Positions 11,712 through 63,034 of a stretch of 64,000 bases of DNA are shown here, piece by piece. Under the pieces are notes generated by a model, which worked only from the letters and a program-made list of their open reading frames with translations, made no database searches and was not told the DNA's origin. Every line of letters starts with the position of its first letter. Position 1 is the stretch's first letter. The stretch is from Spirochaetia bacterium. GTDB lineage: Bacteria; Spirochaetota; Spirochaetia; SZUA-6; Bin103. The stretch is from the NCBI GenBank assembly GCA_965203055.1, contig OZ241863.1:544001-608000 (forward strand), in the 5' to 3' direction. Both the position numbers and the translations under genes were made by a program.

Positions 11712-11741
11712 GCGAGGCCGCGGTGTGGCCCGCGGCCTCGC
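11712..11741. terminator. 12-bp GC hairpin between convergent genes
   Basis: GCGAGGCCGCGG-N6-CCGCGGCCTCGC; no U tract. Confidence 0.45.
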
Positions 11742-11764
11742 ATCACTCCAACGTGCTCCCGTGG

Positions 11765-20060: not shown

Positions 20061-20135
20061 TGATGCCGCAGGGTACCCGCAACGGCGGCTGCGCGGCAAC
20101 GCACGGCGTTTCGTTGTTAGCTGCATCTCCCGGCC

Positions 20136-42747: not shown

Positions 42748-43336
42748 CGGGACCTCCGTCCGCGGGCTCCAGGTCGCACAGGCGCAGGAAATGCGGCTCG
42801 CCTACGTCGTCGCGCCACTGCTCGATGACCACCTTGACGTGGCGGCTGCCGCCGGCAATCGGATAGCGGAAGCGATGTGGAATACGCAACTCGATCCATT
42901 CGCCGGGGCTGGCTTCGGTTTGCTGTCCCCACAGGTAGTAGCGCTCCCGCTTCGGCTGCAGCCTGTCCAGGATGTCGGAACAGTCCGCCAGTGCACCGTC
43001 CGTCCAATTGGCGTCGCCGAGAAAGACGGTGCGCCAGCAGGTTTCGCCAAGCGACGCAATGACGCGCCAGCGCAATTCGCCGTCGGGCGCGAACAGTCTC
43101 CCCGCCGTGGAGCGGGACAGGCAACCGCCCGTTCGTTCTGCGATCGGCTCGCGGCCGGCGCCGCACCAATGGAGATCGCGTTCGACGCCGCGCCACCAGT
43201 CGAACGCCCAGCCATCGGCCGCCTCCAGCCAGATGCGGCGCGAAGCCGTGCCGTTGGGCGGCGGATCGAGATTCGTAATGAGATCCAGAAATCCGTTGCG
43301 CGTCAGGTCAGCCGCTCTCAAGCAAGCCACGGTCAT
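42740..43336 (-). CDS. csx19: Csx19
   Basis: RLFAPDGELRWR, YYLWGQ, ELRIP..FRYP, RLCDLE; position in a III-D operon. Confidence 0.75.
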   Translation of the reverse strand: MTVACLRAADLTRNGFLDLITNLDPPPNGTASRRIWLEAADGWAFDWWRGVERDLHWCGAGREPIAERTGGCLSRSTAGRLFAPDGELRWRVIASLGETCWRTVFLGDANWTDGALADCSDILDRLQPKRERYYLWGQQTEASPGEWIELRIPHRFRYPIAGGSRHVKVVIEQWRDDVGEPHFLRLCDLEPADGGPDA

Positions 43337-44301
43337 GCTCCCGCCCGCTGTCGAGGTTGCCGGTTGGGCGCCTGCCCTCCAGGTCCTCCGTGCCAGCGCA
43401 GGAATGCTTCGAACGCCGGCGTCAGTGACTGCAATCGCACGGACCAGTCGTCCAGAACGTACTCCTGGCGCAGACCGCGCGGCGCCGCCGCCGGCAACGC
43501 AACCGGATCCGCCGGCGTCCAGTCGTGCAGGCGGTATGCCTCCCGCTCCCCGGTCGTCGCCAGTTGCCCGATGCCGGCCAACGACTGCGCGGGATGCAGA
43601 TAGGCCAGCCGGAAAGACGCCACTTTGGCGCGTACTCGCCCCATGCCTCGGCTGCGCCCCGATCCCACGGCGATCATCTCGTCCTTCAGATCGGCGAGCA
43701 GCAGGTTGAGCCCCGCCAGTTGCCAGAGCTCGAAGTTGGTCAGCCGAATGCGCGCCTCGAACTTGCCCCCGACCACCGCCTGCAGGTCGAACAACACGCC
43801 TTTCACGGTGCCTCCCGTGAAGCGGTCTATGCCCACGCCGTTGCGAGACTCGGGCGTTGGAGCGCAGCCCGGCAGCGGGTACGCATCGCCGATGCTGAAC
43901 CGGCCCGCGAACTTCAACGAACCGAACAGGCGGCACGCTGCGCACGAGTCGGCGTACCTGGCGGACGCAGGATCAGCTTCCTCGCCGCGGGAACGATACC
44001 CGCAGCCGTAAGACTCTTTCTCGTCATCGACCGGAATCGAGATGTCGTTTCGCTTCGGGTCGTAGTATGGCAGGCAGACGCTCCCCGGCTGCAGAGTGCG
44101 GGCGATGCGCTCGAAGTGACTGCGCAGGACGCCTTTGAGCGACGAACCCGGTAGATAATAGACGCTCTCGCCGTTCAGAAAGGTCACGACCGGCACCATG
44201 TCGGCGTCACCGAGCGTCGCGTAGCCGCTCTTGACCAGTACCGGATCCACGGGTTCGATCTCAATCGTCACGTCTGCTTGGCACAGCCACTTTCGCAGCA
44301 T
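43333..44301 (-). CDS. csm3: Cas7-group RAMP (Csm3-like)
   Basis: PGSSLKGVLRS, CAACRLFGS, GIDRFTG, GSGRSRGMG. Confidence 0.85.
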   Translation of the reverse strand: MLRKWLCQADVTIEIEPVDPVLVKSGYATLGDADMVPVVTFLNGESVYYLPGSSLKGVLRSHFERIARTLQPGSVCLPYYDPKRNDISIPVDDEKESYGCGYRSRGEEADPASARYADSCAACRLFGSLKFAGRFSIGDAYPLPGCAPTPESRNGVGIDRFTGGTVKGVLFDLQAVVGGKFEARIRLTNFELWQLAGLNLLLADLKDEMIAVGSGRSRGMGRVRAKVASFRLAYLHPAQSLAGIGQLATTGEREAYRLHDWTPADPVALPAAAPRGLRQEYVLDDWSVRLQSLTPAFEAFLRWHGGPGGQAPNRQPRQRAGA

Positions 44302-44302
44302 G

Positions 44303-45130
44303 TCACTCCTCCTCCGGCGCCAGTCGCAGGCGGCGCTGAATATGATCGCCAAAGAAGCCTTCCCAATCGCCCAGGTCACTTAGGCGGTCGTCCGACGTGG
44401 TCGACGTCAGAAACGTGACCCGCTGCTCCGGGTCACTCAGATCGACCCCCAGCAGCTTGATTTCTTCTTCCAGATGGAACCGCCCGAGGCCGCGGCTGGT
44501 AAAGCCGCCGATGCTGCTACCCGAGCGCCACTCAAACAGCGCGGCGCCGAGCAGGGCCAAGTCCCGGTCATGCGGATTGTCGAGATCGATGCGCAGCTTG
44601 AAGCGGCTGCCGGGAGGAACCACCTCGTAATCGTACTTGAGGCCATCGGCCGCGGTCTGGCTGTCGCGATCGATCACCACTCCGTCACGCACCTGCACCA
44701 CGTTGGCCCACTCCTTCAGCATGCCGTCGCTCACCCGCAGGCGGCCGGCCTGGACCGGCGACCCGAACAGCTTGCACACATCGCAAGTGTGATCGTCGAT
44801 CCACCGCAGCCGCCCTTCCAGATCCTGAGACGCCTTTCGATATTCGTCACGCGCCTTCTGGTAGTATTTGACGTCACTCGTACAGTTCACGCCGCTTGCC
44901 TGATGGTCCAGCAGACAGGCGCTCAGGCCCAAGGCGTGCGCCAGCGTCTCGCAGGTGCTCCGCAGCCTCCCCTTGAGCGAAGACCCGGGCAGGACGGGCT
45001 GGCCGGCAGGGTCCAACACGACGCCCAGGTCGCTGCTCTCTCCCTCTCTGCCCGATCCGATCCGCCACGCCGTCTCGAACACCAAGTAGGCGGTGACACT
45101 GATCTTACGGCGCAACGCGAAGTCTCTCAT
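44303..45130 (-). CDS. csm3: Cas7-group RAMP (Csm3/Csx7-like)
   Basis: RIGSG..SD, PGSSLKGRLRS, CDVCKLFGS, IGGFTSRGLG. Confidence 0.85.
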   Translation of the reverse strand: MRDFALRRKISVTAYLVFETAWRIGSGREGESSDLGVVLDPAGQPVLPGSSLKGRLRSTCETLAHALGLSACLLDHQASGVNCTSDVKYYQKARDEYRKASQDLEGRLRWIDDHTCDVCKLFGSPVQAGRLRVSDGMLKEWANVVQVRDGVVIDRDSQTAADGLKYDYEVVPPGSRFKLRIDLDNPHDRDLALLGAALFEWRSGSSIGGFTSRGLGRFHLEEEIKLLGVDLSDPEQRVTFLTSTTSDDRLSDLGDWEGFFGDHIQRRLRLAPEEE

Positions 45131-45551
45131 ATTCCTCGACCCCCAACCGGTACAAGGCGTGCGTACAGAAGCGTTCGAAAAACGCCGGGATGTGAGTCTG
45201 TTCCCACGCCTCCCGCCGCTTGCGTTGGCGGCGCCTGGTCTCCGTACGAAGTTCAGGCGGTGCGTGCTTGTCCCCTTCCACACGGACGGACCACCCGTTA
45301 CGCGAATCGCAGAGTCTTTCCACTAGTTGCCAGAATTGGACTTCTGACTGCTTGTTCTTTCGTTCTGCCCGAGTACGCTGACGTTCGGCGAAGTTCTTGA
45401 CTTGCTCCGGTTGCTGACGAGCAATCTGCCGCAGACCGTAGATCTGCGCTGTTTTCACGGGGAACTTTCGGATCTCGCCAAGCAGCGTATCGAGTTGCTG
45501 ACGAGCCTGGTCGCGGTAAACAGTATCGGACAGCAGATCGACTATTGTCAT
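45105..45551 (-). CDS. putative small subunit (Cas11-like) 2
   Basis: 148 aa, helical, TAQIYGLRQIA; in operon. Confidence 0.6.
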   Translation of the reverse strand: MTIVDLLSDTVYRDQARQQLDTLLGEIRKFPVKTAQIYGLRQIARQQPEQVKNFAERQRTRAERKNKQSEVQFWQLVERLCDSRNGWSVRVEGDKHAPPELRTETRRRQRKRREAWEQTHIPAFFERFCTHALYRLGVEEYERLRVAP

Positions 45552-45958
45552 GCGCCGGCCTCCATCCGCTGCAATGCGAGTCGGTACAGGTATTCGCCGA
45601 CGACAGCCTGTACCCAGCCGCGGGCAAGCCGGAGGCGCAAAGCCATTCGGTCATATTCGTCCCCCGTAAGGTCCTGACTGAGCTTGCGCAACCGCGCAAG
45701 CTGCTTCAGCACGTCGTTACCGAGCGCCATCCACTTCTTGTCTCCCTTGCCCATCTGGTTCTTGACGAAGTCCTCGATGTCGGCGAACCGGGTGGCGGAG
45801 CAGGCGATCTGCTGCAGGTTGCGTACCTGCGTGCTGATCTTCCCCTTGTCCGAGCCGAATTCGTCAAAGAATCGCCTGCCAAGAGAGGAGAACTTCTCGT
45901 GGTTCTCGTCAAGGTAGCAGTCAACCTTGCCGATCAGGTCGGCGTTCAAGACGTGCAC
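45548..45958 (-). CDS. putative small subunit (Cas11/Csm2-like) 1
   Basis: STQVRNLQQIA...FVKNQMGK..W; in operon. Confidence 0.65.
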   Translation of the reverse strand: MHVLNADLIGKVDCYLDENHEKFSSLGRRFFDEFGSDKGKISTQVRNLQQIACSATRFADIEDFVKNQMGKGDKKWMALGNDVLKQLARLRKLSQDLTGDEYDRMALRLRLARGWVQAVVGEYLYRLALQRMEAGA

Positions 45959-47184
45959 GGCTGCGCCTCCTGCATGGAAAATCGACGGTGGAACTCATCG
46001 GACACCGACACTACGCCGAAACCCTCGTTGCGCCGCAAGCCGATGCCGTCCTCGACCAGCGCCGCGAGCCGCGGGATAAACGCGTCGCGTTGGCTTGGCG
46101 CGCCCTCGAATCGATAGACGTAGGCCGCGCCGCGCGCGACCGCCCACTCGTCCTGACGCGGCAGACCGTGAGCCGCGTTCCAGCCGCGGAGGCGCTCGTG
46201 CCGGGTGACCGCGGCGATCCAGCGTACCGTACCGCCAGAATCGAGGAGCCGGACCGCCCGATTCCGTAGCGGGAACGCAGTCGAGACAGGGGACATGTGC
46301 GGCAGCCATCCAACCATGTCCGCCGGGTCCAGGGAATAACGCAGAAACCGATCCACCATCACGGCGCCGGTCGGAAGTGAAATCGCGAAGAAGAAGCCGT
46401 CCGCCAAGTTCGTAATGGATAGCTTCCGCAGAAAGTTGCTCAGGTCGGCGTTCCATCGAACCCACCGATCGGCCTGCGAGCGCAGGTTCTCCGGCGCCGC
46501 CGGCTCTCCGAGCGTCACGTGCACGTCTCCGTAGCCGCGCGTGCGGGCATGGCCGACGGAAATGCGGCCCGCTTCATCCTGCAGGAGCCGCCGCAACGTG
46601 TCGAGCGCGTCGTCATCAGCCCGGAGCCAACCATGGAGATCGGCATCGTTTCCGGAGGGCGCCAGCGCTTCCAGGGTGTAGAAGATGGAGTCCGCGGCGG
46701 TGCCGGTCCGGCGGTCGATGCCCACGTGAGAGGCGACCTGCAGAGTGCTCGCCTTCTTACAAACGCGGCCGGACTCGTCGCGCCAGAAACCATCCTCCGC
46801 CTTCAAGTCCGCATCGCACTGCGCGCACTGCTGCCAGGCTTCCGCGCCGCCGGCCATCCGGCCCGCCGAGTAGTGTTGCGCGACGCGGAACCAGAGCAGG
46901 TCCACCAGGGCATGCTCAAGCCGTTCGTGCTTGCAGGAAGCCGCGGTCAGCGGGAATACCTGCGGAGCGGGGTCCAGCGGTCCGAAGCGGCAGGCGGCAT
47001 CGTTAAGAAACACCCGTTCGAAGGTCTCGTCAGTCCGCCCATGGCGCTGCAGGTAGAGCGATGCGAAGGCCCCGCGCACGAGAGTGCCCGCCACCGACCG
47101 GGCACTCCCAGAGCGTTCGGACTGCCGATCGCGCCTGATCGCCAACGGGGCAAGCAACCGCGCGGTGACAGAGACGATTTTCAT
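45946..47184 (-). CDS. csx10: Csx10 (Cas5/Cas7-like RAMP)
   Basis: GTLVRGA, GIDRRTG, GHARTRGYG, RGWN..GLPR, GIGLRRNEGFG. Confidence 0.85.
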   Translation of the reverse strand: MKIVSVTARLLAPLAIRRDRQSERSGSARSVAGTLVRGAFASLYLQRHGRTDETFERVFLNDAACRFGPLDPAPQVFPLTAASCKHERLEHALVDLLWFRVAQHYSAGRMAGGAEAWQQCAQCDADLKAEDGFWRDESGRVCKKASTLQVASHVGIDRRTGTAADSIFYTLEALAPSGNDADLHGWLRADDDALDTLRRLLQDEAGRISVGHARTRGYGDVHVTLGEPAAPENLRSQADRWVRWNADLSNFLRKLSITNLADGFFFAISLPTGAVMVDRFLRYSLDPADMVGWLPHMSPVSTAFPLRNRAVRLLDSGGTVRWIAAVTRHERLRGWNAAHGLPRQDEWAVARGAAYVYRFEGAPSQRDAFIPRLAALVEDGIGLRRNEGFGVVSVSDEFHRRFSMQEAQPCTS

Positions 47185-47924
47185 GCCATGTCTCCGCGCA
47201 GCTCGTCGATCCACTTGGCCCATTCGCCTCTCCATCTCGCGAAGCTGGTGAGGGAATACTCCGGGGTCTCGGTGGCGCCGTTCCAACGCAGTGACTCGAT
47301 ACGTACCTCGCACCTACCCAAACCGGTGCTCTTGTCGCCGCCCAGAGTATCCAGCGACAGCAGCCCAGCCACCAGAAGCGCATACTCGTAAGGGAACTCA
47401 TCATCGTCTTCTTGCGTCAGAACACCGCCGGGATGCCGGGCGCGGATGGCGCCTTGCAATTCGACATCCGCTTCGACCAGTTCCGTGGTAAACAAGTGTC
47501 GTTCCATGACCGTACCGGTGACACGATCGATGGCGGTGCGCGCGGCCACGGCCGGCGTTCCCTTCTCCGCCTTGCTTGGCACGGCGTTGGTCATGAACAC
47601 GCACTCACCTTGGTAGCGGCTGCCGAACAGTCGGTCGATCAGCAGCTTGGACTTGGCCAGTGGCCGGAAATGTTCCACGAGGCTCCGGTCGCCTTCTCCG
47701 GCGCCTGCATGCGGATCGACCGCTTCGAGGCCGAGCGCCAAGGCAAGCCGCTCGCACTGATGCCGCAGCACGCCCTTGACTTGCGAGCCCGGCACGAAAG
47801 GCGCTCCCGCTCCGCCGAGTCGCTGCTGCAAACGATCCACTGCGGCCGACCCGTAGCCGCTGCCGACGTGCCAGCGTCCGTTCCATGCGATGCGGTAACC
47901 GATGTCCAAGCGCTGCGGTTTCAA
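47181..47924 (-). CDS. csm3: Csm3 (Cas7) RAMP
   Basis: HVGSG...D, PGSQVKGVLR, IDRVTG, LGGDKSTGLG. Confidence 0.88.
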   Translation of the reverse strand: MKPQRLDIGYRIAWNGRWHVGSGYGSAAVDRLQQRLGGAGAPFVPGSQVKGVLRHQCERLALALGLEAVDPHAGAGEGDRSLVEHFRPLAKSKLLIDRLFGSRYQGECVFMTNAVPSKAEKGTPAVAARTAIDRVTGTVMERHLFTTELVEADVELQGAIRARHPGGVLTQEDDDEFPYEYALLVAGLLSLDTLGGDKSTGLGRCEVRIESLRWNGATETPEYSLTSFARWRGEWAKWIDELRGDMA

Positions 47925-49669: not shown

Positions 49670-50896
49670 TCAGTCAGCAAGGCAGATTCTGAAAGCATCG
49701 TCCAGGGCGTCCCGTAGCCGACCGGGATCATCGAGTATTCCGCGGGACCTCCGTTGCGGACGGGTCGTGTGCGCAAGGGAGTTGCGGATGTGTTGGAGAT
49801 TCAGGTGGGCGAGCTGCCGCTCGCCGGCGCAGTTGGTTGTCAGCTCTATCGTGGCCGCCTTTCGAAGTTCTTCATCATATCGATATTGGTCGACAGGCCT
49901 TCCGTTACTCTGATTCTGACACCACCGGTTGATGCAGGCTTCCCAGCCCAACATCGCCGCGCGCACGAAGTCGTGGCGGTTCAGGTATTGGTAAGCGAGC
50001 TCCCGCTGCCGTTGCCACGGCTGGCCTTGTTTCACCCACCGCAGCCGCTTCTCCAACTCCTCCTTGAACAGACCGGACGCTCCACCGAGCGGTGCGGCGC
50101 GCTCCGACAGATAGGACAGGAACGTGCGCACTCTGTTCTCGGCGGCAGGCACGTTGAGAATGCGTTCGTAGAACGACGCGTTCGTCAGGCACCTGGCCTT
50201 ATCATACGGCACGCCGTCTGCGACGAGCAGCGGTTCGAACATCCCCAGGTCCCCGGTCGCGTCATACCGTTCCAGCGCCGCCACCCAACGCCTGACGCGG
50301 ACCAGTCCATCCAGCTTGAGCACCGGCGTGATTCCTTCCCGCGTCATGTCCACAGCGCCGTACCACAGGTCCTTGACCTCGAGACTACGGACGCGCTCCA
50401 GCATGAAGGCCGACAGGAAACCCACCATGGCGAGATGGCGGAACCCGTGCGTAAGGTCGAAACTCACGGTGCCGTCCGGTACCACCTTCGGATCGGCGAT
50501 GGTGGCAAGGATGCCGTACTGCTCACCAAGAGACTCCCCGTACGGTATGAGACGCGGTAGTACGTCGCAACGAGTCCGCTCTTTCATGAGCGGCGTTACG
50601 CGGTCAAGGAGGTCCTGGTCGACGGCAGACTTGGGCTCGGCCTCCAGCAGCTCGATACGCGCTTCCTCGTACTCGTCGCCCTCCTGCGTCGCCACGTGCT
50701 CGACCAATGCGCCCCACTGACTGCCGCGCGTGCCAAGTATCACGATCGCATCCGGCTGCAGATGCTCTGCCAACGCCAGTCCGAAGAACTCGGTTTCCTT
50801 CGTGGTTCCGTCGGGAAACAGATAGTTGGCCTTGCGATATGGCGTTTCCTTTGTATCCCTGCCTCGCCCAAGGAACGTTACCACCGTGTGCTTCAT
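49670..50896 (-). CDS. csx1: Csx1/TM1812-type CARF-HEPN ribonuclease
   Basis: TFLGRG, LGTRGSQW, FDLTHGFRH CARF motif; HEPN RNSLAH. Confidence 0.88.
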   Translation of the reverse strand: MKHTVVTFLGRGRDTKETPYRKANYLFPDGTTKETEFFGLALAEHLQPDAIVILGTRGSQWGALVEHVATQEGDEYEEARIELLEAEPKSAVDQDLLDRVTPLMKERTRCDVLPRLIPYGESLGEQYGILATIADPKVVPDGTVSFDLTHGFRHLAMVGFLSAFMLERVRSLEVKDLWYGAVDMTREGITPVLKLDGLVRVRRWVAALERYDATGDLGMFEPLLVADGVPYDKARCLTNASFYERILNVPAAENRVRTFLSYLSERAAPLGGASGLFKEELEKRLRWVKQGQPWQRQRELAYQYLNRHDFVRAAMLGWEACINRWCQNQSNGRPVDQYRYDEELRKAATIELTTNCAGERQLAHLNLQHIRNSLAHTTRPQRRSRGILDDPGRLRDALDDAFRICLAD

Positions 50897-50964
50897 TGCG
50901 CCCTCCAATGTGGGTTTGAGTCCGTCCCGCCTGTTTGGACTTCGACGGTAGCACGATAATTCTA

Positions 50965-50980
50965 AGCAATTTCCGTGCCA
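50965..50980 (-). promoter_or_regulatory. sigma54 -24/-12 promoter of the csx1-cas10 operon
   Basis: TGGCACG-GAAA-TTGCT on the minus strand, ~70 bp before the csx1 ATG. Confidence 0.85.
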
Positions 50981-51002
50981 TCGTCGAGAGTCTACCGGCG
51001 AA

Positions 51003-51047
51003 GCCTGCACAGAACAGCGGAGTCGCCACTCGGTAGGTCGCTTTCAT
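51003..51047 (-). pseudogene. 5' stub resembling cmr1
   Basis: MKATYRVATPLFCAG. Confidence 0.5.
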
Positions 51048-51261
51048 GGCCGCGCGCTCGCCACCGCCGGATCAGCGTGCCCGACCTTTACCATAGGCCG
51101 ACTCGCCCTGGATTGCAACGGGTGTCGCAATAAATCTTCCATTCATGTAACGTATGTTACGATCACGGCCAACCTGTTCCGGCCACTGAGCAATGGCACG
51201 GCTGCAGGCTCTTCATGCGGTGCCGCCGGCGTGGCTGCGGAATTGGGAAAGGAGGACGACG

Positions 51262-52761
51262 ATGCGTAGCATCCTGATCAGTTGGATCGGCAATACGGAC
51301 CTGAAAGCGTCGCAGGGAGGCGCGGAGGGTATCGGACCGGTGGCCAAGGCCGTGGAGGACGGTACGTACGACGACGCCTTTCTGCTCACCACGTATGGCG
51401 ACGAGGCGGAACGCTACCGAGAGTGGCTCGAAGGGCGCGCGAGCGGGATCAGTCTCCACCTGCTGCACGAGCGGCTCACCAGCCCCACGGCCTTCGGCGA
51501 GGTCTACCCAGCCGCGGTCCGCGCCTGCGAACGGGCGCGCGCGGCCGCCGGTCCGGGCGCCGCGCTCACGTTCCATCTGAGCCCCGGCACGCCGGCCATG
51601 TCCGCGGTGTGGATCATCCTGGCCAAGACGCGCTTCGAGGCAACGATCATCGAGTCGTCGAAAGAGCACGGCGTCCGGGAGGTCTCCGTCCCCTTCGACA
51701 TCTCGGCTGAGTTTCTCGCCGATCTACTGCGGCAGCCGGACCGGGATCTGGAACGTCTGAGCGCCGGGCTGCCGCCGCAGGCGCCCGCCTTCGACGAGAT
51801 CGTCCATCGCAGCCCGGAGATGCGGCGCGTCATTTTGCTCGCCCGGCGGGTCGCGCTGCACTCGGTGCCGGTTCTGATCGAGGGAGAGTCCGGCACGGGC
51901 AAGGAGCTGATGGCGCGGGCCATCCACCACTCGAGCCCACGACGGGAGGAACGGTTCATCTCGGTCAACTGCGGCGCAATACCTGAGAATCTGGTTGAGT
52001 CGGAGTTGTTCGGCCATGAGAAGGGCGCGTTCACCGGTGCCGTCAAGATGCGAAAGGGGCACTTCGAAGCCGCGAGTGGCGGAACGCTATTTTTGGATGA
52101 GATCGGGGAGCTGCCGCTTTCGGCGCAGACGAAGCTGTTGCGCGTCCTGCAGGAAGGGACGGTCCAGCGTGTCGGCAGCAGCGACACGCGTTCAGTAGAC
52201 GTGCGCGTCATCGCGGCGACCAACCGTACCCTGACGGAGGAGGTCGCACGCGGCCGGTTCCGCGAAGACCTCTTCTATCGTCTGGCGGTGGCGGTGCTCA
52301 AGCTGCCGCCGCTCCGCGAGCGCGGCGGCGACGTCGGGCCCATGACGGATCATCTTCTCGTCCAAATCAACCGCGAGTTGGCGAAAGCTCTTGGTTATCG
52401 GCGCAAAAGCCTTTCCGCTTCGGCAAGGAATCTTCTTACTCGGCACCCGTGGCCGGGCAACGTACGCGAGTTGCGCAACACGCTGATGCGCGCCGCGCTC
52501 TGGTCGGCGGGCGACATCATCACGGGGGACGACCTGCGCGGTGCGCTGCTATCGGCGCTCGGCGACCGCAAGCGGGACGTGTGGGACCGTCCCTTGGGCG
52601 GCGGTTTCAGCATCGAGGCGCTGTTGGCGGAGATCAGGCGCCATTATCTGAGCCGCGCGATGGAGAAGGCCGGCGACAACAAGACCAGGGCAGCCAAACT
52701 ACTGGGACTCCGCAGCCATCAGACGCTCAGCAACTGGCTGAAACAGCACGCGGCGGAATGA
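51262..52761 (+). CDS. sigma54 enhancer-binding protein with N-terminal CARF (RtcR-like) domain
   Basis: AGGAGG RBS; ILISWIGNTD...FHLSPGTPAM; GESGTGKE, GAFTGA, FLDEIGE, WPGNVREL; Fis-type HTH NKTRAAKLLG. Confidence 0.88.
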   Translation: MRSILISWIGNTDLKASQGGAEGIGPVAKAVEDGTYDDAFLLTTYGDEAERYREWLEGRASGISLHLLHERLTSPTAFGEVYPAAVRACERARAAAGPGAALTFHLSPGTPAMSAVWIILAKTRFEATIIESSKEHGVREVSVPFDISAEFLADLLRQPDRDLERLSAGLPPQAPAFDEIVHRSPEMRRVILLARRVALHSVPVLIEGESGTGKELMARAIHHSSPRREERFISVNCGAIPENLVESELFGHEKGAFTGAVKMRKGHFEAASGGTLFLDEIGELPLSAQTKLLRVLQEGTVQRVGSSDTRSVDVRVIAATNRTLTEEVARGRFREDLFYRLAVAVLKLPPLRERGGDVGPMTDHLLVQINRELAKALGYRRKSLSASARNLLTRHPWPGNVRELRNTLMRAALWSAGDIITGDDLRGALLSALGDRKRDVWDRPLGGGFSIEALLAEIRRHYLSRAMEKAGDNKTRAAKLLGLRSHQTLSNWLKQHAAE

Positions 52762-52777
52762 TGGCACGATTATTGCT
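52762..52777 (+). promoter_or_regulatory. sigma54 -24/-12 promoter of the csb2-cas1-cas2 operon
   Basis: TGGCACG-ATTA-TTGCT immediately after the regulator stop. Confidence 0.85.
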
Positions 52778-52833
52778 TATCAGGTATTGAGGGCCGAGTT
52801 CGGAACGAGCCGTCAGCCCCGGAGGAAAGAATC

Positions 52834-52914
52834 ATGGCGCAGGACGTAGAGAAACTACTGACGACGACTAGCACCCACGCCAACCCGCCTCGCGGCCCGC
52901 GGAGACGCGCGTGA
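52834..52914 (+). CDS. 26-aa leader ORF or gene stub
   Basis: GGAGG RBS; MAQDVEKLLTTTSTHANPPRGPRRRA; TGA overlaps the next GTG. Confidence 0.4.
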   Translation: MAQDVEKLLTTTSTHANPPRGPRRRA

Positions 52915-53642
52915 CCGGCGGGCCGGCGCGCGCGGCGCGGATGCCGGATTGCGTGCGCTTTCGTCTCACCGGCGACCGGCTCCCGACTGCGCGCCTGGGG
53001 CATCAGGTCGCCGAACGCGCCCGCCGCGCCGCGCTCGGCCGGGCACGCATGATGTACGGACCGGACGGCATACCCGCGGCGCTGTCGGGCCACGGCGCCC
53101 AGGCCGGCGCGCCGGCCCTGGAGCACCGGCACGCCTTCTGGCTGCCGGAGGATGCCGACGGCGACGGGCGCATCGACCATCTCACCGTGCACGCCCGGGC
53201 GATGGACGGGACGGCGCTGGCGGCGCTGTTGGCCGCGGACATCGCCGTCCATGCACGACGCGAGCACTGGCGCGCAGCCTCGGACTGGATCGGCCGCCAT
53301 GACGAGCCGGACATCCCCACGGCCCTGCTGGAGGTCGCGGTCGAATGGGTCTCCGTCGCTCCCTACTACCGGCCGTGGCACGCGAAGCGCGGCTTCTCGC
53401 AGGACGACATGATCCGCCGCGAATGCGCCGCGCGCGGTCTGCCTCCGGTGACGGAGGTGGAGTTGATCGGCTCCGGCGCCGCCCCGCCGCGCTGGCGCTG
53501 GCGCGAAAGCGCGCCGAAGGGGAACGGCCGGGGCACGGCGTGGCGGCTGGTCTTCGCCGCGCCCGTGCGCGGGCCGCTGGCGTTCGGCTACGGCTGTCAC
53601 TTCGGCCTCGGCCTGTTCGCCCCGGAGTCGGGCGATGCGTGA
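52911..53642 (+). CDS. csb2: Csb2 C-terminal (Cas6-like) half, likely crRNA-processing enzyme
   Basis: LSGH, HRHAFWLPED, IDHLTV, W.SVAPY, GPLAFGYGCHFGLGLF G-loop. Confidence 0.8.
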   Translation: MTGGPARAARMPDCVRFRLTGDRLPTARLGHQVAERARRAALGRARMMYGPDGIPAALSGHGAQAGAPALEHRHAFWLPEDADGDGRIDHLTVHARAMDGTALAALLAADIAVHARREHWRAASDWIGRHDEPDIPTALLEVAVEWVSVAPYYRPWHAKRGFSQDDMIRRECAARGLPPVTEVELIGSGAAPPRWRWRESAPKGNGRGTAWRLVFAAPVRGPLAFGYGCHFGLGLFAPESGDA

Positions 53643-54678
53643 CGCCGACCGGCGCGACCGCGCCGCGGCCATCCGCCATCCGGTCTACGTCAACAACCAG
53701 GGCGCGCGCATCGGCCTGACCGGTCACACCCTCGAGGTGGCGATGCTGGACAAGCGCCGGCGCCGGCACCTGCGCCTGGACGAAATGTCCGAAATGACCG
53801 TCATGGGCAACATCCAGGTAACCACGCCTGCGCTGCAGGAACTGATGCGGCGCGGCATCCCGGTGTGCTGGACGACCTCCTCCGGCTGGTTCCTGGGCGC
53901 CACTTCCGGCTTCGGCCACGGCGATGGCGCGTTGCGCGCGGAACAGCACGCCGCCGCCGCCGACCCCGCGCGCCGCGTCGCCTTTGCCCGCACTTGGGTG
54001 GCCGCCAAGATCCGGAACTGCCGCACCCTCCTGCGCCGCAACGGGAGCGGCCGCGAGGCGAAGATCGCAGTGCGTCAACTGACGGAACTCGTGGAAAACG
54101 CGGAACGCACCGCCGATCTGGACAAGCTGCGCGGCTACGAGGGCGCCGCGGCCGCCGCCTACTTCAGGACCTTCCCGGCCATGCTGCGCGGGCGGGCGGC
54201 CTGGGCCGCCGAACGGTACCGGGGCCGCAACCGCCGGCCGCCGCGCGATCCGGTCAACGCCGCGCTCTCCTTCGCCTACGCCGTCCAGACCCGCTCCTGG
54301 AGCGTCGCCGTCACCGCCGCCGGACTCGATCTGTTCACCGGGTTCCTGCACGGCTTCCGGCATGGTCGTCCCGCGTTGGCGCTCGACCTGATGGAACCGG
54401 CGCGGCCGCGGATCGCGGATTCCGCGGTCCTGCGCATATTCAATTCGGGGATGCTGAAAGCCGGCTACATGGAACAGGAGGGCAACGCAGTCCTGCTCGG
54501 CGAGCAGGGCCGGCGCGTCCTGCTGGACGCACTGGAAGACCGGCTGGACGAGTCGAGCCTCCACGACCGCCTGGGGCGGGCCATCATCTACCGCGACCTG
54601 CCGTCCATCGAAGCCGCCCGCCTCGCGCGCGCTCTGCGCCGCAACGACGAGCCGCCGGCGCAGATGAGCTGGCGGTAG
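53635..54678 (+). CDS. cas1: Cas1 (no Cas4 or RT fusion)
   Basis: GNIQVTTPAL, LRGYEGAAAAAYF, RNRRPPRDPVNAALSFAY, GRPALALDLMEP. Confidence 0.93.
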   Translation: MRDADRRDRAAAIRHPVYVNNQGARIGLTGHTLEVAMLDKRRRRHLRLDEMSEMTVMGNIQVTTPALQELMRRGIPVCWTTSSGWFLGATSGFGHGDGALRAEQHAAAADPARRVAFARTWVAAKIRNCRTLLRRNGSGREAKIAVRQLTELVENAERTADLDKLRGYEGAAAAAYFRTFPAMLRGRAAWAAERYRGRNRRPPRDPVNAALSFAYAVQTRSWSVAVTAAGLDLFTGFLHGFRHGRPALALDLMEPARPRIADSAVLRIFNSGMLKAGYMEQEGNAVLLGEQGRRVLLDALEDRLDESSLHDRLGRAIIYRDLPSIEAARLARALRRNDEPPAQMSWR

Positions 54679-54693
54679 CAGCGGAGCGTCCTC

Positions 54694-54969
54694 ATGCCGC
54701 CTGCCGGAAGGGACTACCTGGTAGCCTACGACGTTTCGTCCCCCAAGCGGTGGCGCCGGGTCTACCGGCTGCTGCACGGTTACGGCGACTGGGTTCAGCT
54801 TTCCGTGTTCCGGTGCCGGCTGGACCCCCGACGCCGCCGCCGGATGGAGCAGGAGCTGCGCGCCGTGATGGAGACCGCCGAAGACCGGCTGCTCATCGCG
54901 CGGCTGGAGGAGGACGGACAAACGGCCGCCGACCGGGCGAAGTCGGATCGACGGGCATTGATCGTGTAA
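54694..54969 (+). CDS. cas2: Cas2
   Basis: YLVAYDVS..RWRRV, GYGDWVQLSVF. Confidence 0.93.
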   Translation: MPPAGRDYLVAYDVSSPKRWRRVYRLLHGYGDWVQLSVFRCRLDPRRRRRMEQELRAVMETAEDRLLIARLEEDGQTAADRAKSDRRALIV

Positions 54970-55008
54970 CCGCCGCGCGGCGTGCTATGCTGGCCGGCGT
55001 CTGGAGGC

Positions 55009-55609
55009 GTGGTCGAATGCCTCGGGTACTACTTCCGCAACCACCCCGACGTGTACGTGTCCGGCAGCCTGCTGATCTACTACGAGGAAGGGACGCGGGC
55101 GAGGGTGGCGCCGGACGTGTTCGTGGTGTTCGGCGCGGGCAAAGAAGAACGCTCGTCGTACCTGCTGTGGAAGGAGGCCAAGGCGCCCGACTTCGTGCTG
55201 GAGATCGCGTCGCCGGGGACGTGGCGGGACGATCAGACCTGGAAGCGGGAGTTGTACCGCCGGCTGGGGGTGGGTGAGTACTGGCAGTACGATCCGACGC
55301 GGAACTACCTGCAGCCGCCGCTGCAGGGGTTGGAGTTGGAGGTTCTACGATCCGCAGACCGGAGAGGAGCTGCGGAACTTGGCGGAGGCCGAAGACGGAC
55401 GCCGGGAGGCGGAGGCCCGCGTGGAGCAGGAAGCGGCCGCCCGCCGCCGGGAGGCAGCCGCCCGCCAGGCCGCAGAAGCCCGCGTCCATCAGGAGGCGGC
55501 CGCCCGCCAGGCCGCAGAGACCAGCGCCCACCAGGAAGCGGCTGCCCGCCAAGCGGCCGAAGCGCGTTTGGCCGAACTCGAGGCATTGTTACGCCGCCGA
55601 TCCGACTGA
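55009..55609 (+). pseudogene. Uma2-family endonuclease remnant
   Basis: VAPDVFVVFG, APDFVLEIASP, EYWQYDP; frameshift at ~55343 to RFYDPQTGE plus EAAARQAAE repeats; 5' end missing. Confidence 0.75.
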
Positions 55610-55639
55610 CGCTACCTACGTTTTTGGAAGTGCCCGCCC

Positions 55640-55897
55640 TGTGGTGTTGCCAAATAACCGGATGTGGCATAGGGTAGCCGTCAAGCAGGCGTCTTTGACA
55701 GAGCGACCGAGCCGGAGGGGTGTGCTGCTGATCCTTCCGGATTCCGCTCGCGTCGCACGAAAGCGTTGCCGCCAAGGGAGATATGGCAGATAATCCTGAG
55801 TGAACGTCCAGTTGAGGGGTCCGATTGCTCGTCATGGCTGCCTCCGCTCGCGGGACTTGAGATTTGTGCTTGCAGATCATGGGGTTGCGGGACGGCA
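55640..55897 (+). promoter_or_regulatory. CRISPR leader
   Basis: Non-coding stretch between the cas2/Uma2 region and the first intact repeat; degenerate repeats lie at the far end. Confidence 0.6.
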
Positions 55898-58579: not shown

Positions 58580-59628
58580 GTCGCGCGGGTGCGCGATCTG
58601 CCAATCCTGGACCAGTCCACCATCCTGGTGCTGGCGCGGCGCCGCTTGGCCTGCCCACAGTGCGGTCCGAAACTCGAACACCTGAACTGGCTGGCTCCCT
58701 ATGCCCGGGTCACCAACCGGCTGGCCGAGAGCGTAGCGCAGATGTGCGCAGTGCTGCCGATCAAACACGTAGCGCAGCACTACGAGCTGCGCTGGGACGC
58801 GGTGAAGGAACTGGATAAGGCGTACTTGCAGCGCACCCTCGGACCGGTGCAGTTGCAGGGAGTCACCCAACTGGTGATGGACGAATTCGCGCTGCGCCGC
58901 GGGCATCGCTACGCCACAGTCATCGTCGATGCCCTCACCAAGCGCGTGCTGTGGGTTGGTAAAGGTCGGCGCCGGGAAGACATACGGCCATTCTTCCAAC
59001 TCTTGGGCAGGGCCGGCTGTGAAGCTATCGAGGCGGTGGCGATGGATATGAACGGCGCCTACGAGCCGGAGGTGCGCCAGAACTGTCCGCAGGCCAGGAT
59101 CGTGTACGACTTGTTCCACGTCGTGGCCAAGTACGGGCGCGAGGTGATCGACCGGGTGCGCGTGGACGAAGCCAACCGGCTGCGAGCTGACCGGCCAGCG
59201 CGAGCGGTGGTGAAAGGGTCACGGTGGCTGCTGCTGCGCAATCGGCAGAACATCCGCAAGCGCGAGGATCGGGTCAAGCTGCGGGAACTGCTGCAAGCCA
59301 ACGAGTCGATCGCTACGGTCTACCTCCTGCGCGACGATCTGAAGCATCTGTGGGAGTATCGCCGTGCGGGGAATGCGCAACGGTTCTGGGAGCAATGGTA
59401 CGAGCGGGCGCAGGCCAGCGGCATCGCGCCGCTGATCAAGTTTGCGACGGCGATGAAGAAGCGACTGCACGGGATCCTGGCGCACTGCCGGTGGCCGCTG
59501 CACACCAGTCTGATCGAAGGCATGAATAACAAGATCAAGGTGATCAAACGAATGGCCTATGGGCTCCGCGACAACGACTACTTCTTCCTCAAGATCAGGG
59601 CCTCTTTCCCGGAGATGCCGGATGAACC
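58580..59628 (+). mobile_element. 5'-truncated ISL3-family element
   Basis: VRDLPIL, MDEFALRRGHRYAT, MDM, YDLFHVV, EGMNNKIKVIKR; right end ...GCCGGATGAACC. Confidence 0.88.
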
Positions 59629-59758
59629 TCTTTTTCTCGTCCGGCCCAATCCTACCCACAACCCGCAGCAACGTTCAACCAGAGCATCGAGCGAGCGTCC
59701 CGGACGGAGCCGCGCCGCGCTTGACGCCGGTGCGGTTCCGGTACATTCTGATTCACGG

Positions 59759-60936
59759 ATGAAAGCAACAGGATTCACCCTGGCCGCCGTGCTGATGGCC
59801 GCCGGAGCCTGGGGCAACGAGCCCCCCCCCCCCCCCCGGATTGGCGCAGCATAGATCACATGGTACAGATCGACGTGATAATGAGCCCCGCAGACTGGCA
59901 TGCCTTGCGCTCGCAGAATCGAATCTTGAAAGATACCGATTGGTCCTGCGAACCGTTCGCAAGCCCGTTCACTTGGTTCACGACGGAGAGCGTAACGATT
60001 GACGGCCGGCCCTACGAACGGGCGCTCATTCGCAAGAAAGGTTTATTAGGTTCGTTGTCCAATACCAAGCCCTCGTTGAAGCTACGATTGGACAAGCACG
60101 TTGAGCAAGATCACTTCGGCACTACCCGGTTGACGCTCAACAACAGCAAACAGGATCAATCCATGGTCAACACGTGCTTGGCCTACGAAGTGTTTCGACG
60201 CGCCGGAATCCCTACCCCGTTATGCAACCTTGCCAGCGTGACCGTCAACGGTGAAGACATGGGTACCTACATCAACGTAGAAGACATGAAGACCGACTAC
60301 TTTGATCGAGCCTGGAACGGGCGCGGCAATCTGTACGAAGGTACGAAAAGCGATTTTCTGCCGGAGCTTACCGGCACCTTCGAGAAGAAGACCGAGAACC
60401 CCGGCTTGGGCTACATCGAGAAGATCACGGAGAGCATCGAGCGCAACGACGTCGCCGCGCTGGCGCGGCTGATCGACGTTGATAGGTTCCTTATGTTCTG
60501 GACGCTTGAATCACTTATCAACATCGAAGACGGATACACCCAAGGCATCAATAACTACTACTTTCACGAAAGCGCCGCCGGGTTGGTATTCATCCCCTGG
60601 GGACCCGACGACACGATGAGGGAACCCAAGGCAAGCGTAATGTGGCTACGCGGCGCCGTCAACCGCGCCCTGTTTCTGAACTACCAAGAGGAATACAAAG
60701 CCCGGATGCTGAGCCTGCTGGATACCGTATGGAACGAGATAGAGATGCTGCAGTACGCTACCCGCCTGGCGCATATCGCAGGCTGGAACCGCGATACCCT
60801 ACGGGTATTTCGGTTCATCACAAATCGCCGGGAGTACGTAGAAGCACGACTTAAGCGAGACCGCTTCTTGAACTACTACCTTGCCAACAAGAGATACGAA
60901 GGAGACTGCGCGGCCGCGCTTGGGGCCGGGCCGTGA
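59759..60936 (+). CDS. CotH kinase-family protein; signal peptide out of frame across a C16 tract
   Basis: IRKKG..S..KPSLKL, LTLNN, GTYINVE, NLYEG, NNYYF, IPWGPD; main frame from 59860. Confidence 0.8.
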
Positions 60937-62823
60937 AAACCGAGAGCCGGCCGGGCCGGGCCGCGCTTGCCGCCGGCGCGCTTCCGGGTCGGTGCGCATC
61001 ATCGGGCCGCGCCCTGGGCCGGTGCGCACCATCGGCCCGCGCGGCGGCCGTGATCGACGTGCAGAGCCGCTGGCGCGCGGGCTCGGATTGCCGTAGAGGC
61101 GTTCGACGGTATGCTCCATAGCTTGGCGAGATGCGGATTGGTGGATGAGCCGTTCGATTTCCTGCATTGCTTCCGGTGAGGGGAGCGGTAATGCTTCCAG
61201 TTCGTATGCCGATACGGCTACGCTGCCGTTGATGCAGCGGAACAGTTGATCGACGACGGCGCTGTTCAGCAGGGCGGCCACGGCGGCCGGAGATACCCGC
61301 GGAGCGCCGTCGATTGGCCGGATCATGTTGAGGTGATTCTCGACCACGACGGCTTCGTGCTCAGCGATGAAGGATGCCGGCAGCTCCGCGGCGATCAGCC
61401 GCCGGCCCTGTTCCTTGGCGGTGGTCCTCTGCAGCAGCACGCACGGATAGTTCGTCACCACCCAGAGATTCTCTTCATTCGGCTCGAAGTATGGTTGGTG
61501 ATTCTTTCGTTGCGCGCGGAACTGGAACACGCCATCGGAGCGCACCGACTCCGCCCACAGCAACGGATAGCGCCCCTTGCCCGGTCCGTCGCGCAGGTTC
61601 CGCTTGTGTCGGTTCCAGACCAGAGGACCGGTGCTGACCCGGTAGCCGTAGTCAGCCAGCCGATACGGCAGTCGATCGGTTCGGCTCACCAAGCCGCGTT
61701 GCGCGGCGGCGCGCGGGATGATCCACGGTCGATCTGGGCATTCCGGCAGGCGGAACCATCCGGCCGCACACGTTCTGATTGAGCCGTCCGGTTCCGGTGA
61801 GATGAAGTGAACCGATCCTCGGCCGGCATGGCCGCCGCGTCGATACGCCGCCAGCATCGTCTCCTGCAGGACGCCGGCAAATACGCTCTTGCGTTCCGCG
61901 ACGAAGGCGATGCTCACCGGCGGCGCCTCGCGGCCGAGCAAAGCGCGCAGCGCCTTGAAGTACTCGCCGGCCAGGAAGCTGGTGGGCGTGACGTAGGCGA
62001 TCACCCCGCCGGTGCGGGCGAAGCGCACGGCCAGGTCGGTGAACAGACCGTACAGGTTCGCGTGACCGAACAGGCCGCGGCGGTACTTCGCGCGCAATTC
62101 CGCCGACAACGCCGCCCGGCCGTAGGGCGGATTGCCGACCACGAGATCGAACGGGTCGCCCTCCGGCGTCTGTTCCAGACTGTGACAGACGTGCACCACT
62201 TGCGGGAGGTGAGTCCCCGCAGCCCGGCAGAGATCGTCGAGCGTGACGTCCAGGAACACCTGCGCCATCCAGGCGGCGAACGGGTCTATCTCGAAGCCGC
62301 GCAGCCGCCGGACGATGTTTCTCAGCGCCGCCGCCGCGCCGGTATCCTGCAGATGCTCCGCCATGCGCCGCGCGACCGGTGACAGGAACGCGCCGCCGCC
62401 GCACGCGGGATCGAGCACGCGCGCGCGTCGCCAGTCGACGCCGGCCTCCGTTGCCATGTCGAGCAACCGTTCGCACAGCGCCGGCGGCGTATAGTAGGCG
62501 CCGAGCTTCGCGCGCAACTTCCCGGGCATGACGCCGGTGTAGAGCAGGCCAATGGCGTAGCCCGCCTGCGTCACGTCCAGTTCCGCCGCGCATCTCCCGA
62601 TGGCCGCCGCCAGTTCACTTTCGGTCTCCGGCAGCGAAGCGACTCCGGCGCCGGCCGGGAGTTCGCGGAGCGGCCAGGCAGGCGCCGATCGCGCATGCAG
62701 TTCGCGCCAGTAGGCGGTGAGCGCAACGAATACCATCGACCGCGCGAATCCCAACCGCTCATCCGCGCGGGCGCACTCCGCCAGAGCGCGGGCTTCTCGG
62801 AGCGCTTGCCGCACTACTCGCAT
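60799..62823 (-). CDS. N-6 adenine DNA methyltransferase (Eco57I/PaeR7I-like)
   Basis: GAYYTPP, LDPACGGGAF, VGNPPYG, QRTTAKEQ.RRL, ENH; recognisable protein ends near 61090. Confidence 0.85.
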   Translation of the reverse strand: MRVVRQALREARALAECARADERLGFARSMVFVALTAYWRELHARSAPAWPLRELPAGAGVASLPETESELAAAIGRCAAELDVTQAGYAIGLLYTGVMPGKLRAKLGAYYTPPALCERLLDMATEAGVDWRRARVLDPACGGGAFLSPVARRMAEHLQDTGAAAALRNIVRRLRGFEIDPFAAWMAQVFLDVTLDDLCRAAGTHLPQVVHVCHSLEQTPEGDPFDLVVGNPPYGRAALSAELRAKYRRGLFGHANLYGLFTDLAVRFARTGGVIAYVTPTSFLAGEYFKALRALLGREAPPVSIAFVAERKSVFAGVLQETMLAAYRRGGHAGRGSVHFISPEPDGSIRTCAAGWFRLPECPDRPWIIPRAAAQRGLVSRTDRLPYRLADYGYRVSTGPLVWNRHKRNLRDGPGKGRYPLLWAESVRSDGVFQFRAQRKNHQPYFEPNEENLWVVTNYPCVLLQRTTAKEQGRRLIAAELPASFIAEHEAVVVENHLNMIRPIDGAPRVSPAAVAALLNSAVVDQLFRCINGSVAVSAYELEALPLPSPEAMQEIERLIHQSASRQAMEHTVERLYGNPSPRASGSARRSRPPRGPMVRTGPGRGPMMRTDPEARRRQARPGPAGSRFSRPGPKRGRAVSFVSLVGKVVVQEAVSLKSCFYVLPAICDEPKYP

Positions 62824-63034
62824 TTCCCCGATTTGCCTCCGCACTCCATGCCGGTCACAACAACAAAATACGATTTTTCTGGGACGGAGCGTCTTCGACG
62901 ACCAGTGCGCCGCCATCGCAAGCGCCGCCGACGCCGCGCCGTTGTAGGGGTATAGAATGGCGCCGCCACTGCACCAGCCGGCTAATCTGTTCCCCGGCCG
63001 CGTCCGGCACGGCGCCGCCATCGACGGAGACTCC

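Follow-up and report, generated by a model that had tools for sequence, protein, structure and literature searches.

The window analysed here, a 64-kb stretch of DNA from a Spirochaetia bacterium (contig OZ241863.1, positions 544,001 to 608,000 of the forward strand), contains a type III CRISPR locus with a regulatory gene at its centre. We consider it probable that the encoded protein, an enhancer-binding protein of the RtcR_PspF2 family, is a switch that acts through an enhancer motif and two sigma-54 promoters on both cas operons of the locus, in answer to an alarm signal shared with its relatives. To our knowledge, little is understood of what induces type III CRISPR-Cas genes and the acquisition of spacers; in this locus the sequence itself shows the wiring: one sensor-regulator, two activator-dependent sigma-54 promoters and a short candidate enhancer motif before each. 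Our literature search turned up no account of a sigma-54 activator or RtcR-like protein within a type III CRISPR locus; examples might be listed in Supplementary Files 4 and 8 of PMC4012209 or in Supplementary file 1 of PMC11090510. The central elements are as follows.

51262-52761, + strand: regulator (P0001), RtcR_PspF2-family enhancer-binding protein, 499 residues; PADLOC, Pfam, structural model and Foldseek agree
50980-50966, - strand: predicted sigma-54 promoter of the csx1-cas10 operon, TGGCACGGAAATTGC; perfect TGGCAC-N5-TTGC match
52762-52776, + strand: predicted sigma-54 promoter of the cas6-like-cas1-cas2 operon, TGGCACGATTATTGC; perfect TGGCAC-N5-TTGC match
51123-51168, no strand assigned: conserved non-coding block with candidate enhancer core GCAATAAATCTTC (core 51127-51139), from an alignment of the window with the three closest related loci (L001, L002 and L003)
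52423-52435, + strand: second candidate enhancer core, GCAAGGAATCTTC, inside the regulator coding sequence

Architecture and family of the regulator

The regulator gene alone covers 51262-52761, within the span from csx1 through cas2 (49670-54969), and lies, as an earlier note on this DNA had described, between two divergent cas operons: the csx1-cas10 type III-D operon and the cas6-like-cas1-cas2-array operon. Its start is most likely the ATG at 51262, rather than the listed start of the open reading frame (ORF) at 51193, because AAGGAGG precedes this ATG and a strand-like sequence, MRSILISWIG, opens the protein. The layout is a CARF domain (residues ~1-145), a linker, a sigma-54 AAA+ domain and a putative C-terminal helix-turn-helix (HTH). 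Family profiles of Pfam and NCBIfam were run on the 17 ORFs of the locus, and 29 other ORFs of the window were also scanned. The AAA+ core proved intact, in agreement with the earlier note: it contains Walker A (GESGTGKE, residues 208-215) and GAFTGA (residues 255-260; nucleotides (nt) 52024-52041), and Pfam assigns Sigma54_activat (PF00158, 242.8 bits) and AAA_lid_14. The HTH, which the same note had called a Fis HTH, does find a match in HTH_8 (PF02954), but a weak one (19.5 bits, E 8.4e-4, under the cut-off of 22); PF02954 is present in many relatives in precomputed annotation, and the PADLOC family profile aligns through the regulator C-terminus.

No Pfam family matched residues 1-200, and a sequence search for solved structures gave none matching the N-terminus. 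The claim of a CARF/RtcR-like N-terminus had been tied to FHLSPGTPAM, which we locate at residues 104-113 (nt 51571-51600). An AlphaFold model of residues 1-185 (11-row alignment; pLDDT 78.5, pTM 0.77) has strands at 3-8, 38-43, 64-69, 101-106, 127-133 and 137-140, the fifth and sixth forming a hairpin, and all ten Foldseek matches in the PDB at E <= 0.001 were chains of CARF proteins (Csm6 6tug, Sis0811, Can2 and Card1), seven of them from Csm6 6tug (best E 4e-5, TMq 0.60); Csa3, Cad1, Cami1 and VC1899 were among the lower-ranked matches. The model and these CARF-only top matches together confirm the predicted CARF fold of the N-terminus, which also weakly matches the PADLOC models CARF4, CARF1 and Csx1 (E 9e-12 to 7e-6).

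By its sequence, the regulator is a member of the known RtcR_PspF2 family and no new kind of protein. The PADLOC profile PDLC01995 (RtcR_PspF2--CARF_AAA_HTH) matches it end to end (643.9 bits, E 5e-194; regulator 3-497 against profile 2-479 of 481), RtcR_PspF1 and RtcR models score 243.7 and 186 bits, respectively, and PDLC01995 gives 616-672 bits on seven of seven relatives from CRISPR, methylase and restriction-modification contexts. Since, in addition, the NCBIfam RtcR equivalog NF038308 reaches 342.7 bits against a cut-off of 650 (aligned over 70-511 of the 522-residue ORF), the protein is RtcR-like yet not RtcR; NifA, NtrC and PrpR are the next-best NCBIfam models. The PADLOC family names presumably stem from the CARF census of Makarova et al. 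2020. Searches with the N-terminal domain returned 1831 proteins at E <= 0.001 in one database and 897 clusters at 50% identity in another, mostly proteins of ~500 residues, those with names spanning several phyla. The 33 closest protein clusters (P0003-P0035) are 75-99% identical to the regulator N-terminus, and the closest relatives all come from metagenome-assembled genomes of Spirochaetia.

RtcR, the activator of rtcBA RNA repair in E. coli and Salmonella, has the same CARF-AAA+(GAFTGA)-HTH layout, and without ligand its CARF domain represses, until ligand permits oligomerisation (PMC7790460); the logic of the regulator is likely alike. The two differ in that the window protein falls below the equivalog cut-off and has CRISPR-Cas as its cargo: no rtcA or rtcB family was found in the 17 locus ORFs or the 29 other window ORFs, and the neighbours are cas genes. 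Proteins with an RtcR-like CARF domain, an NtrC-type AAA+ domain and an HTH have been described beside restriction-modification systems (Makarova et al. 2014, PMC4012209). The RtcR homologues of Bell et al. 2024 (PMC11090510) are likewise CARF-ATPase-HTH proteins heading defence operons, namely CoCoNuT and restriction-modification superoperons; the loci in question contain McrBC-type systems and no CRISPR, and the available text of that paper names neither sigma-54 promoter sites nor an enhancer motif. Csa3 of archaeal CRISPR loci resembles the regulator in being a CARF transcription factor encoded within a CRISPR locus, but it is a CARF-winged-HTH protein of a different CARF family, with no AAA+ domain and no sigma-54 dependence, whereas the regulator is CARF-AAA+-HTH. 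Csa3 regulates cas and acquisition genes.

Two sigma-54 promoters and their conservation

Each divergent cas operon has a perfect -24/-12 promoter beside the regulator, and control of both is therefore well founded: the regulator very probably turns on both the interference and the spacer-acquisition genes from two sigma-54 promoters. This part of the earlier proposal is borne out by the two perfect promoters and the intact activator, as far as can be inferred from sequence. The csx1-cas10 promoter lies 70 nt upstream of the csx1 ATG (50896), before which there is a GGAGGG ribosome-binding site, and has a perfect counterpart in L003, whereas the promoter of the cas6-like operon begins on the base right after the regulator TGA. 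In the 64 kb there are exactly two perfect TGGCAC-N5-TTGC sites, where 0.16 would be expected and none of 100 shuffles gave as many; they lie on either side of the regulator, each pointing to a cas operon, and they conform as well to the longer TGGCACG-N4-TTGCT, which we take to be the published extended sigma-54 consensus. With one mismatch allowed, the window has four sites against 4.66 expected, so only the perfect sites carry weight. A weak sigma-70-like match overlaps the csx1 promoter, and a sigma-70-like site at 55766-55794 offers an alternative to read-through from the cas6 promoter for transcription of the array.

A search with an alignment of N-terminal domains, made on contigs drawn from one genome per species, led to 316 confirmed places; we retained the best 80 as L001-L080, and locus counts refer to them. 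The count of promoter junctions covers the 69 loci in which the regulator is full-length and the sequence continues for at least 40 nt beyond it. In 57 of these, a -24/-12 site with no more than one mismatch lies between -20 and +60 of the regulator stop, and in 42 it starts exactly at +1 after the stop, which is TGA in 36 of the 42; 12 loci, L003 included, have no such site near the stop by that criterion. Judged from these sequences, the TGGCAC-after-stop junction is fixed across phyla. The conserved sites indirectly support the presence of rpoN in the genome, and both window promoters would be expected to depend on it.

Perfect sigma-54 promoters also occur in the three closest loci: a divergent pair in L003 (9832-9818 on the - strand and 9963-9977 on the + strand) serving the same two units as in the window, two sites in L001 (9623 and 11504), and two in L002 (4898, before a 785-residue RAMP gene, and 9696), where there is also a one-mismatch site at 11500. 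No convincing sigma-54 site was found ahead of the Cmr operon of L001. The regulator itself stands behind a sigma-54 promoter in L001-L003, which implies autoregulation. Between that promoter and the regulator, L001 (9650-10000) and L002 (9462-10016) have a small DUF1232-like gene overlapping the regulator start; the window retains ~70 nt of the 3' end of this gene (51193-51261), and the promoter has been lost. The sequence TGGCACGG at 51195 was considered as a remnant of a regulator promoter and rejected: it aligns with the 3' end of the L001 DUF1232 gene and has no -12 element.

A candidate enhancer, one copy within the coding sequence

The conserved block is present in all four CRISPR-linked loci, that is, the window and L001-L003, where it precedes the sigma-54 promoters it faces by 36-190 nt.

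Window, 51123-51168: TCGCAATAAATCTTCCA ... GTAACGTATGTTAC
L003: TCGCAAGAAATCTTAC
L002: TCGTAAGAAATCTTCC
L001: TCGCAACAAGTCTTCC

The intergenic copy of its core (51127) lies 147 nt upstream of the csx1 promoter, and the copy internal to the regulator gene (52423) 339 nt upstream of the cas6 promoter; the 13-nt motif GCAANNAATCTTC occurs exactly twice in the window against 0.01 expected. Inside the regulator coding sequence, the motif GCAAGAAATCTT is found family-wide at Ala-Arg-Asn-Leu codons, where it is kept by rare codons, the background share being taken from regulator genes with a mean G+C of 63%.

Ala, GCA: 61/68 at the motif site, background share 12%
Arg, AGA/AGG: 54/57, background share 10%
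Asn, AAT: 34/63, background share 27%
Leu, CTT: 31/39, background share 14%

As a control, codon bias was ranked over 301 conserved-residue columns, and the top three were residues 389, 388 and 385, all at the motif site; the columns ranked next are serine, an amino acid with two codon boxes that no one-step synonymous change connects. In a relaxed form, GCAARRAAYNTY, the motif stands at the same place in 54 of the 69 full-length genes, 333-366 nt before the gene end, and has just 69 matches in 2.6 Mb of locus sequence on both strands. These patterns suggest that the coding-sequence motif is probably an enhancer embedded in the regulator gene, although related sequences do not count as independent observations; the stop-abutting promoter would be served by the copy inside the gene, and the extra promoter by the additional intergenic one. 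Neither a stop-abutting promoter nor an enhancer held in the coding sequence by rare codons was met in the available parts of the literature on the family.

Other candidate elements did not hold up. In the two upstream regions, scans for repeats and palindromes yielded just the inverted repeat ATTGCAAC-N4-GTCGCAAT (51112-51131), which is neither shared nor conserved, and a GTTGC/GCAAC palindrome (52468-52481), to which the same applies and which lies in a conserved VRELRN coding stretch. A 17-nt block and GTAAC-N4-GTTAC each have one site in the window, and only the shorter core recurs; the integration host factor (IHF) site WATCAANNNNTTR has no match in the window.

Related loci and the CRISPR-linked clade

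The stop-abutting promoter and the enhancer motif within the coding sequence are hallmarks that the regulator has in common with the RtcR_PspF2 family, the difference being in the cargo. The cargo was classed wherever the sequence continues downstream for at least 1.5 kb, which is so in 69 loci; 11 further loci were too short.

Type I restriction-modification: 36/69 loci
Module led by a methylase-ATPase fusion of 1250-1350 residues: 18/69 loci (the split from the preceding class is approximate: L020, L027 and L078 were labelled methylase-ATPase by the script but resemble type I restriction-modification)
CRISPR: 3/69 loci
DUF4007 and Eco57I-type methylase: 3/69 loci
AAA_21 pair only: 2/69 loci
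TPR protein: 1/69 loci
Unclassified: 6/69 loci

The earlier note had suggested a survey of whether homologues co-occur with cas10 and with -24/-12 sites; the promoter sites do recur, in 57 of 69 loci, but cas homologues (E <= 1e-3) or a comparable CRISPR array were found only in L001, L002 and L003 of the 80 loci, the other 77 having neither within 10 kb. Family members are thus usually associated with type I restriction-modification or a methylase-ATPase, whereas the window regulator and these three precede cas6-like, cas1 and cas2 genes and an array, and the window locus adds a second enhancer copy and a second promoter for the divergent type III operon.

The closest relatives are those of L001, L002 and L003, with N-terminal identities of 88, 79 and 76%, and each of these three loci has the regulator, cas6-like, cas1 and cas2 genes and an array with a nearly identical repeat that follows cas2. 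Their effector modules vary: L003 has the same III-D set as the window, L001 a type III-B module in which Cmr1, Cas10/Cmr2, Cmr4, Cmr5 and Cmr6 were found together with a Cas_APE2256-family protein, and L002 fused RAMP genes and a weak Csm6-like ORF. A group-II-intron-type reverse transcriptase (RVT_1; TIGR04416 257 bits, under the cut-off) is encoded in L002 at 11913-13100, between the regulator and the cas6-like-cas1-cas2 genes, and hints at RNA spacer uptake in that locus. In a quick maximum-likelihood tree of the regulators (70 rows; 11 loci with truncated regulators omitted), the four CRISPR-linked proteins form one clade (SH-aLRT 100, stem 0.37), nested in an 18-row clade (99) otherwise made up of methylase-linked proteins.

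The type I cargo comprises HsdR, HsdM and HsdS, often with an AAA_21 ATPase and a 315-residue protein without assigned family; HsdR of L018 (11541-14300) has a weak Peptidase_S24-like stretch (residues 99-209, E 6e-6) before its nuclease and helicase parts. In L004 (11535-19939) and 17 other loci, an N6-methylase-AAA fusion of 1250-1350 residues and an AAA/NACHT-like ATPase of ~540 residues stand behind the regulator and promoter; some of the methylase-ATPase loci add a protein of ~1000 residues without family match, and no function has been assigned to this cargo. The regulator proteins of L028 (Vicinamibacterales) and L030 (a Thermoplasmatota archaeon) are identical, which suggests either a binning error or a very recent transfer.

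The signal and a proposed mechanism

The window CARF domain is 51-67% identical to those of six sampled relatives linked to restriction-modification, methylase or other cargo, while the C-terminal region is the part most divergent from them (42-59% identity). Of the positions where the other 66 proteins are at least 85% conserved, only six have a deviating residue common to the four CRISPR-linked proteins; three of the six fall within the CARF domain, each a conservative change (Q29K, L129I and A141V). Neither the WIGxTDL loop that follows CARF strand 1 nor the HLSPGTPAM loop that follows strand 4 shows any change in the alignment. Because the CARF domain is nearly unchanged relative to restriction-modification- and methylase-linked relatives, and in view of the RtcR literature, the evidence favours a family-wide, RtcR-like alarm signal as ligand rather than a Cas10-specific cyclic oligoadenylate (cOA). 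In that literature, oligoadenylates are stated to be no signal for E. coli RtcR (in a section heading of PMC9650030), most CARF domains of the RtcR type are without the basic residue that follows strand 4, and they may have different ligands (PMC4012209), and HEPN products with cyclic phosphate ends have been proposed to feed back on the RtcR homologues that head CoCoNuT and restriction-modification superoperons (PMC11090510).

The proposed mechanism would run as follows. Without signal, the N-terminal CARF domain would prevent assembly of the AAA+ domain, as CARF repression does in RtcR. Binding of the signal would allow an AAA+ ring to form at the enhancer motif GCAAnnAATCTTC, at the intergenic copy as well as the copy in the regulator coding sequence, and ATP hydrolysis would open sigma-54 RNA polymerase at both promoters, that at 50980-50966 (- strand) driving csx1, cas10 and the RAMP genes and that at 52762-52776 (+ strand) driving cas6-like, cas1 and cas2 and perhaps the array. 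The signal would most likely be shared by the family, a sign of infection or of damage to RNA, for example RNA termini bearing a 2',3'-cyclic phosphate, and cleavage products of the HEPN RNase Csx1 could add positive feedback once the system is on.

The earlier note had drawn a circuit in which target recognition yields cOA or Csx1 cleavage products and these induce both operons, so that CRISPR-Cas amplifies itself. Its cOA version, in which Cas10 makes cOA on target recognition and cOA acts on the regulator CARF domain, we regard as unlikely. Sigma-54 promoters are essentially silent without their activator, and a Cas10 product could therefore hardly be the first trigger of cas10; the production of Cas10 would have to precede that of its own inducer, unless basal expression came from the weak sigma-70-like site. 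The regulator belongs to a known family, and its CARF domain, with its three conservative changes, is nearly the same as in relatives that have no Cas10 within 10 kb. At the place after strand 4 where RtcR-type CARF domains mostly lack a basic residue, PGTPAM follows here, and the statement on oligoadenylates and E. coli RtcR also speaks against cOA. What stands of the infection-triggered amplifier is the control of both operons, with feedback by Csx1 products as a possible addition, whereas a cOA trigger is improbable on this evidence.

Several points nevertheless weigh against a family-shared signal or against parts of the proposed switch. The Cas10 of the window has GGDD, and the adjacent effector is a CARF-HEPN protein of the cOA type. 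The modelled fold resembles cOA binders, Csm6 with a cA6 analogue and then Can2 and Card1, and all four CRISPR-linked loci hold Cas10 or a type III RAMP module together with a CARF effector, so that cOA would be available to the regulator. A precedent exists in Csa3, a CARF transcription factor said to recognise cA4 (PMC8699464), and the available text of a 2025 classification paper counts transcriptional regulators among cOA-activated effectors (PMC12669027). The long stem of the CRISPR-linked clade (0.37) leaves room for functional change, and the tree is a quick version rather than a careful search. As to the switch itself, rpoN is not among the 17 locus and 29 other ORFs scanned, all from the 64 kb; the window, unlike L001-L003, has no sigma-54 promoter ahead of the regulator; and the motif is no more than a putative binding site of the regulator HTH. 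We consider it doubtful, if somewhat less so than the cOA circuit, that the CARF domain senses something made in the type III response itself. If it did, recognition of one target RNA would raise transcription of the effector complex, Csx1 and Cas1-Cas2 together, interference would be directly coupled to the uptake of new spacers, and the sigma-54 promoter ahead of the regulator in L001-L003 would let the protein increase its own amount there.

Control in trans by a protein partner encoded in the regulated operons, with no small ligand, has a model in RtcR, whose CARF domain is bound by RtcA and RtcB, both needed for activation, and in PspA, cited as a negative regulator of PspF (PMC9650030). 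Such a cargo-encoded partner is hard to reconcile with a cargo that differs wholly between family members while the CARF domain stays 51-67% identical, and no candidate partner gene is conserved on the upstream side of the regulator loci; we think this explanation improbable. Least probable of all is a switch that answers general physiology (nutrient, growth phase or DNA damage) and gates costly defence genes, since, although many sigma-54 activators are metabolic, NifA, NtrC and PrpR are the next-best models and RtcR responds to DNA damage and antibiotics (PMC7790460, PMC9650030), CARF folds go together with ligands that are nucleotides or RNA, and the cargo is restriction-modification, methylase-ATPase or CRISPR in at least 57 of 69 loci, which argues for a defence-specific role.

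Cas operons, array and neighbouring genes

The minus-strand operon, from 50896 to 41629, is by its profile matches a type III-D gene set, several of the subunit matches scoring under curated cut-offs.

49670-50896, - strand: Csx1-like CARF-HEPN RNase, 408 residues (P0002), first gene of the interference operon; TIGR02221 148 bits
47921-49627, - strand: Cas10; Pfam Cas10-Cmr2_palm2 52.1 bits, weak Csm1_B match
47181-47924, - strand: RAMP, Csx7/Cmr4-like; Pfam RAMPs 60.6 bits
45946-47313, - strand: Csx10-type RAMP, type III-D signature; TIGR02674 141.8 bits over 44-446, cut-off 177
45298-45699, - strand: ORF of 133 residues; no Pfam or NCBIfam match, 47% identical to its L003 counterpart
44303-45283, - strand: Csx7-type RAMP (ORF as listed); TIGR02581 129.3 bits, above the cut-off of 108
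43333-44379, - strand: Csx7-type RAMP; Pfam RAMPs 93.4 bits, TIGR02581 102.3 bits
42740-43336, - strand: csx19-like gene, ~198 residues from ATG 43336; TIGR03984 Csx19 E 1.5e-5, under the cut-off
41629-42747, - strand: type III RAMP, TIGR03986-like, last gene of the interference operon; RAMPs 55.7 bits, TIGR03986 150.9 against a cut-off of 161

The Csx1-like protein has the motifs DLTHG and, for HEPN, RNSLAH, and scores 410.6 bits with PADLOC CARF2--CARF_HEPN. Cas10 keeps GGDD, as the earlier note had it, at residue 326 (nt 48652-48641), and no HD domain was matched in it by the Pfam scan. The 133-residue ORF would, from its position, be the small subunit. The true start of the RAMP listed at 44303-45283 is probably further in; that of the csx19-like gene, which has a homologue in L003, was set at the sole internal Met.

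The plus-strand operon and array comprise the following.

52835-52914, + strand: upstream ORF of 26 codons (MAQDVEKLL...GPRRRA), ribosome-binding site GGAGGAAAG
52911-53642, + strand: Cas6-like protein, corresponding to the C-terminal half of Csb2; TIGR02165 65.8 bits, cut-off 45, profile 252-492 of 492
53635-54678, + strand: Cas1; Pfam Cas_Cas1 266.9 bits, NF049935 347 bits, profile 214-534
54694-54969, + strand: Cas2; Pfam CRISPR_Cas2 65.3 bits
55974-57441, + strand: CRISPR array, 37-nt repeat GTCACCAGCCGCGCGAAACGCGCGGCCCTATTGAAAC; Tandem Repeats Finder

The stop of the 26-codon ORF overlaps the GTG start of the cas6-like gene (GTGA); this ORF is conserved in L001 (~11720-11795), where a glycine-rich small ORF precedes it. 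The closest counterpart of the window Cas1 is the Cas1 portion of the type I-G Cas4/Cas1 fusion. The interval from cas2 to the array holds a Uma2-family fragment (54982-55677) with a Pro/Gly-rich tail and 42-nt tandem repeats (55450-55563). An ISL3 transposase gene (58589-59854) follows the array, as one does in L001, and beyond it there is an Eco57I/N6-type methylase gene (60799-63261).

The window averages ~66% G+C, and the regulator locus lies within a defence-rich stretch. At 1935-9032, a protein of 1298 residues with PLD-nuclease and SNF2-type helicase parts and, following it, an Eco57I/MmeI-type methylase of 1024 residues form a further defence-like pair. An AAA_21/AAA_15 ATPase gene and a 137-codon ORF (17534-18634) stand between the genes for the large (18654-20345) and small (16180-16803) subunits of an aconitase-family enzyme, and look like an insertion into a metabolic operon.

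Significance

As far as sequence logic goes, the circuit is real: a regulator of a known family is found in a new setting that includes an additional promoter and an additional enhancer copy. Two points of its cis-architecture deserve attention in their own right, a promoter that begins on the base after the regulator stop and a candidate enhancer motif that is held in the coding sequence by rare codons. The same head of regulator and promoter stands before restriction-modification, methylase-ATPase and CRISPR cargo, which suggests a common alarm signal for unrelated defences, and identification of the ligand would therefore matter well beyond the locus in the window.

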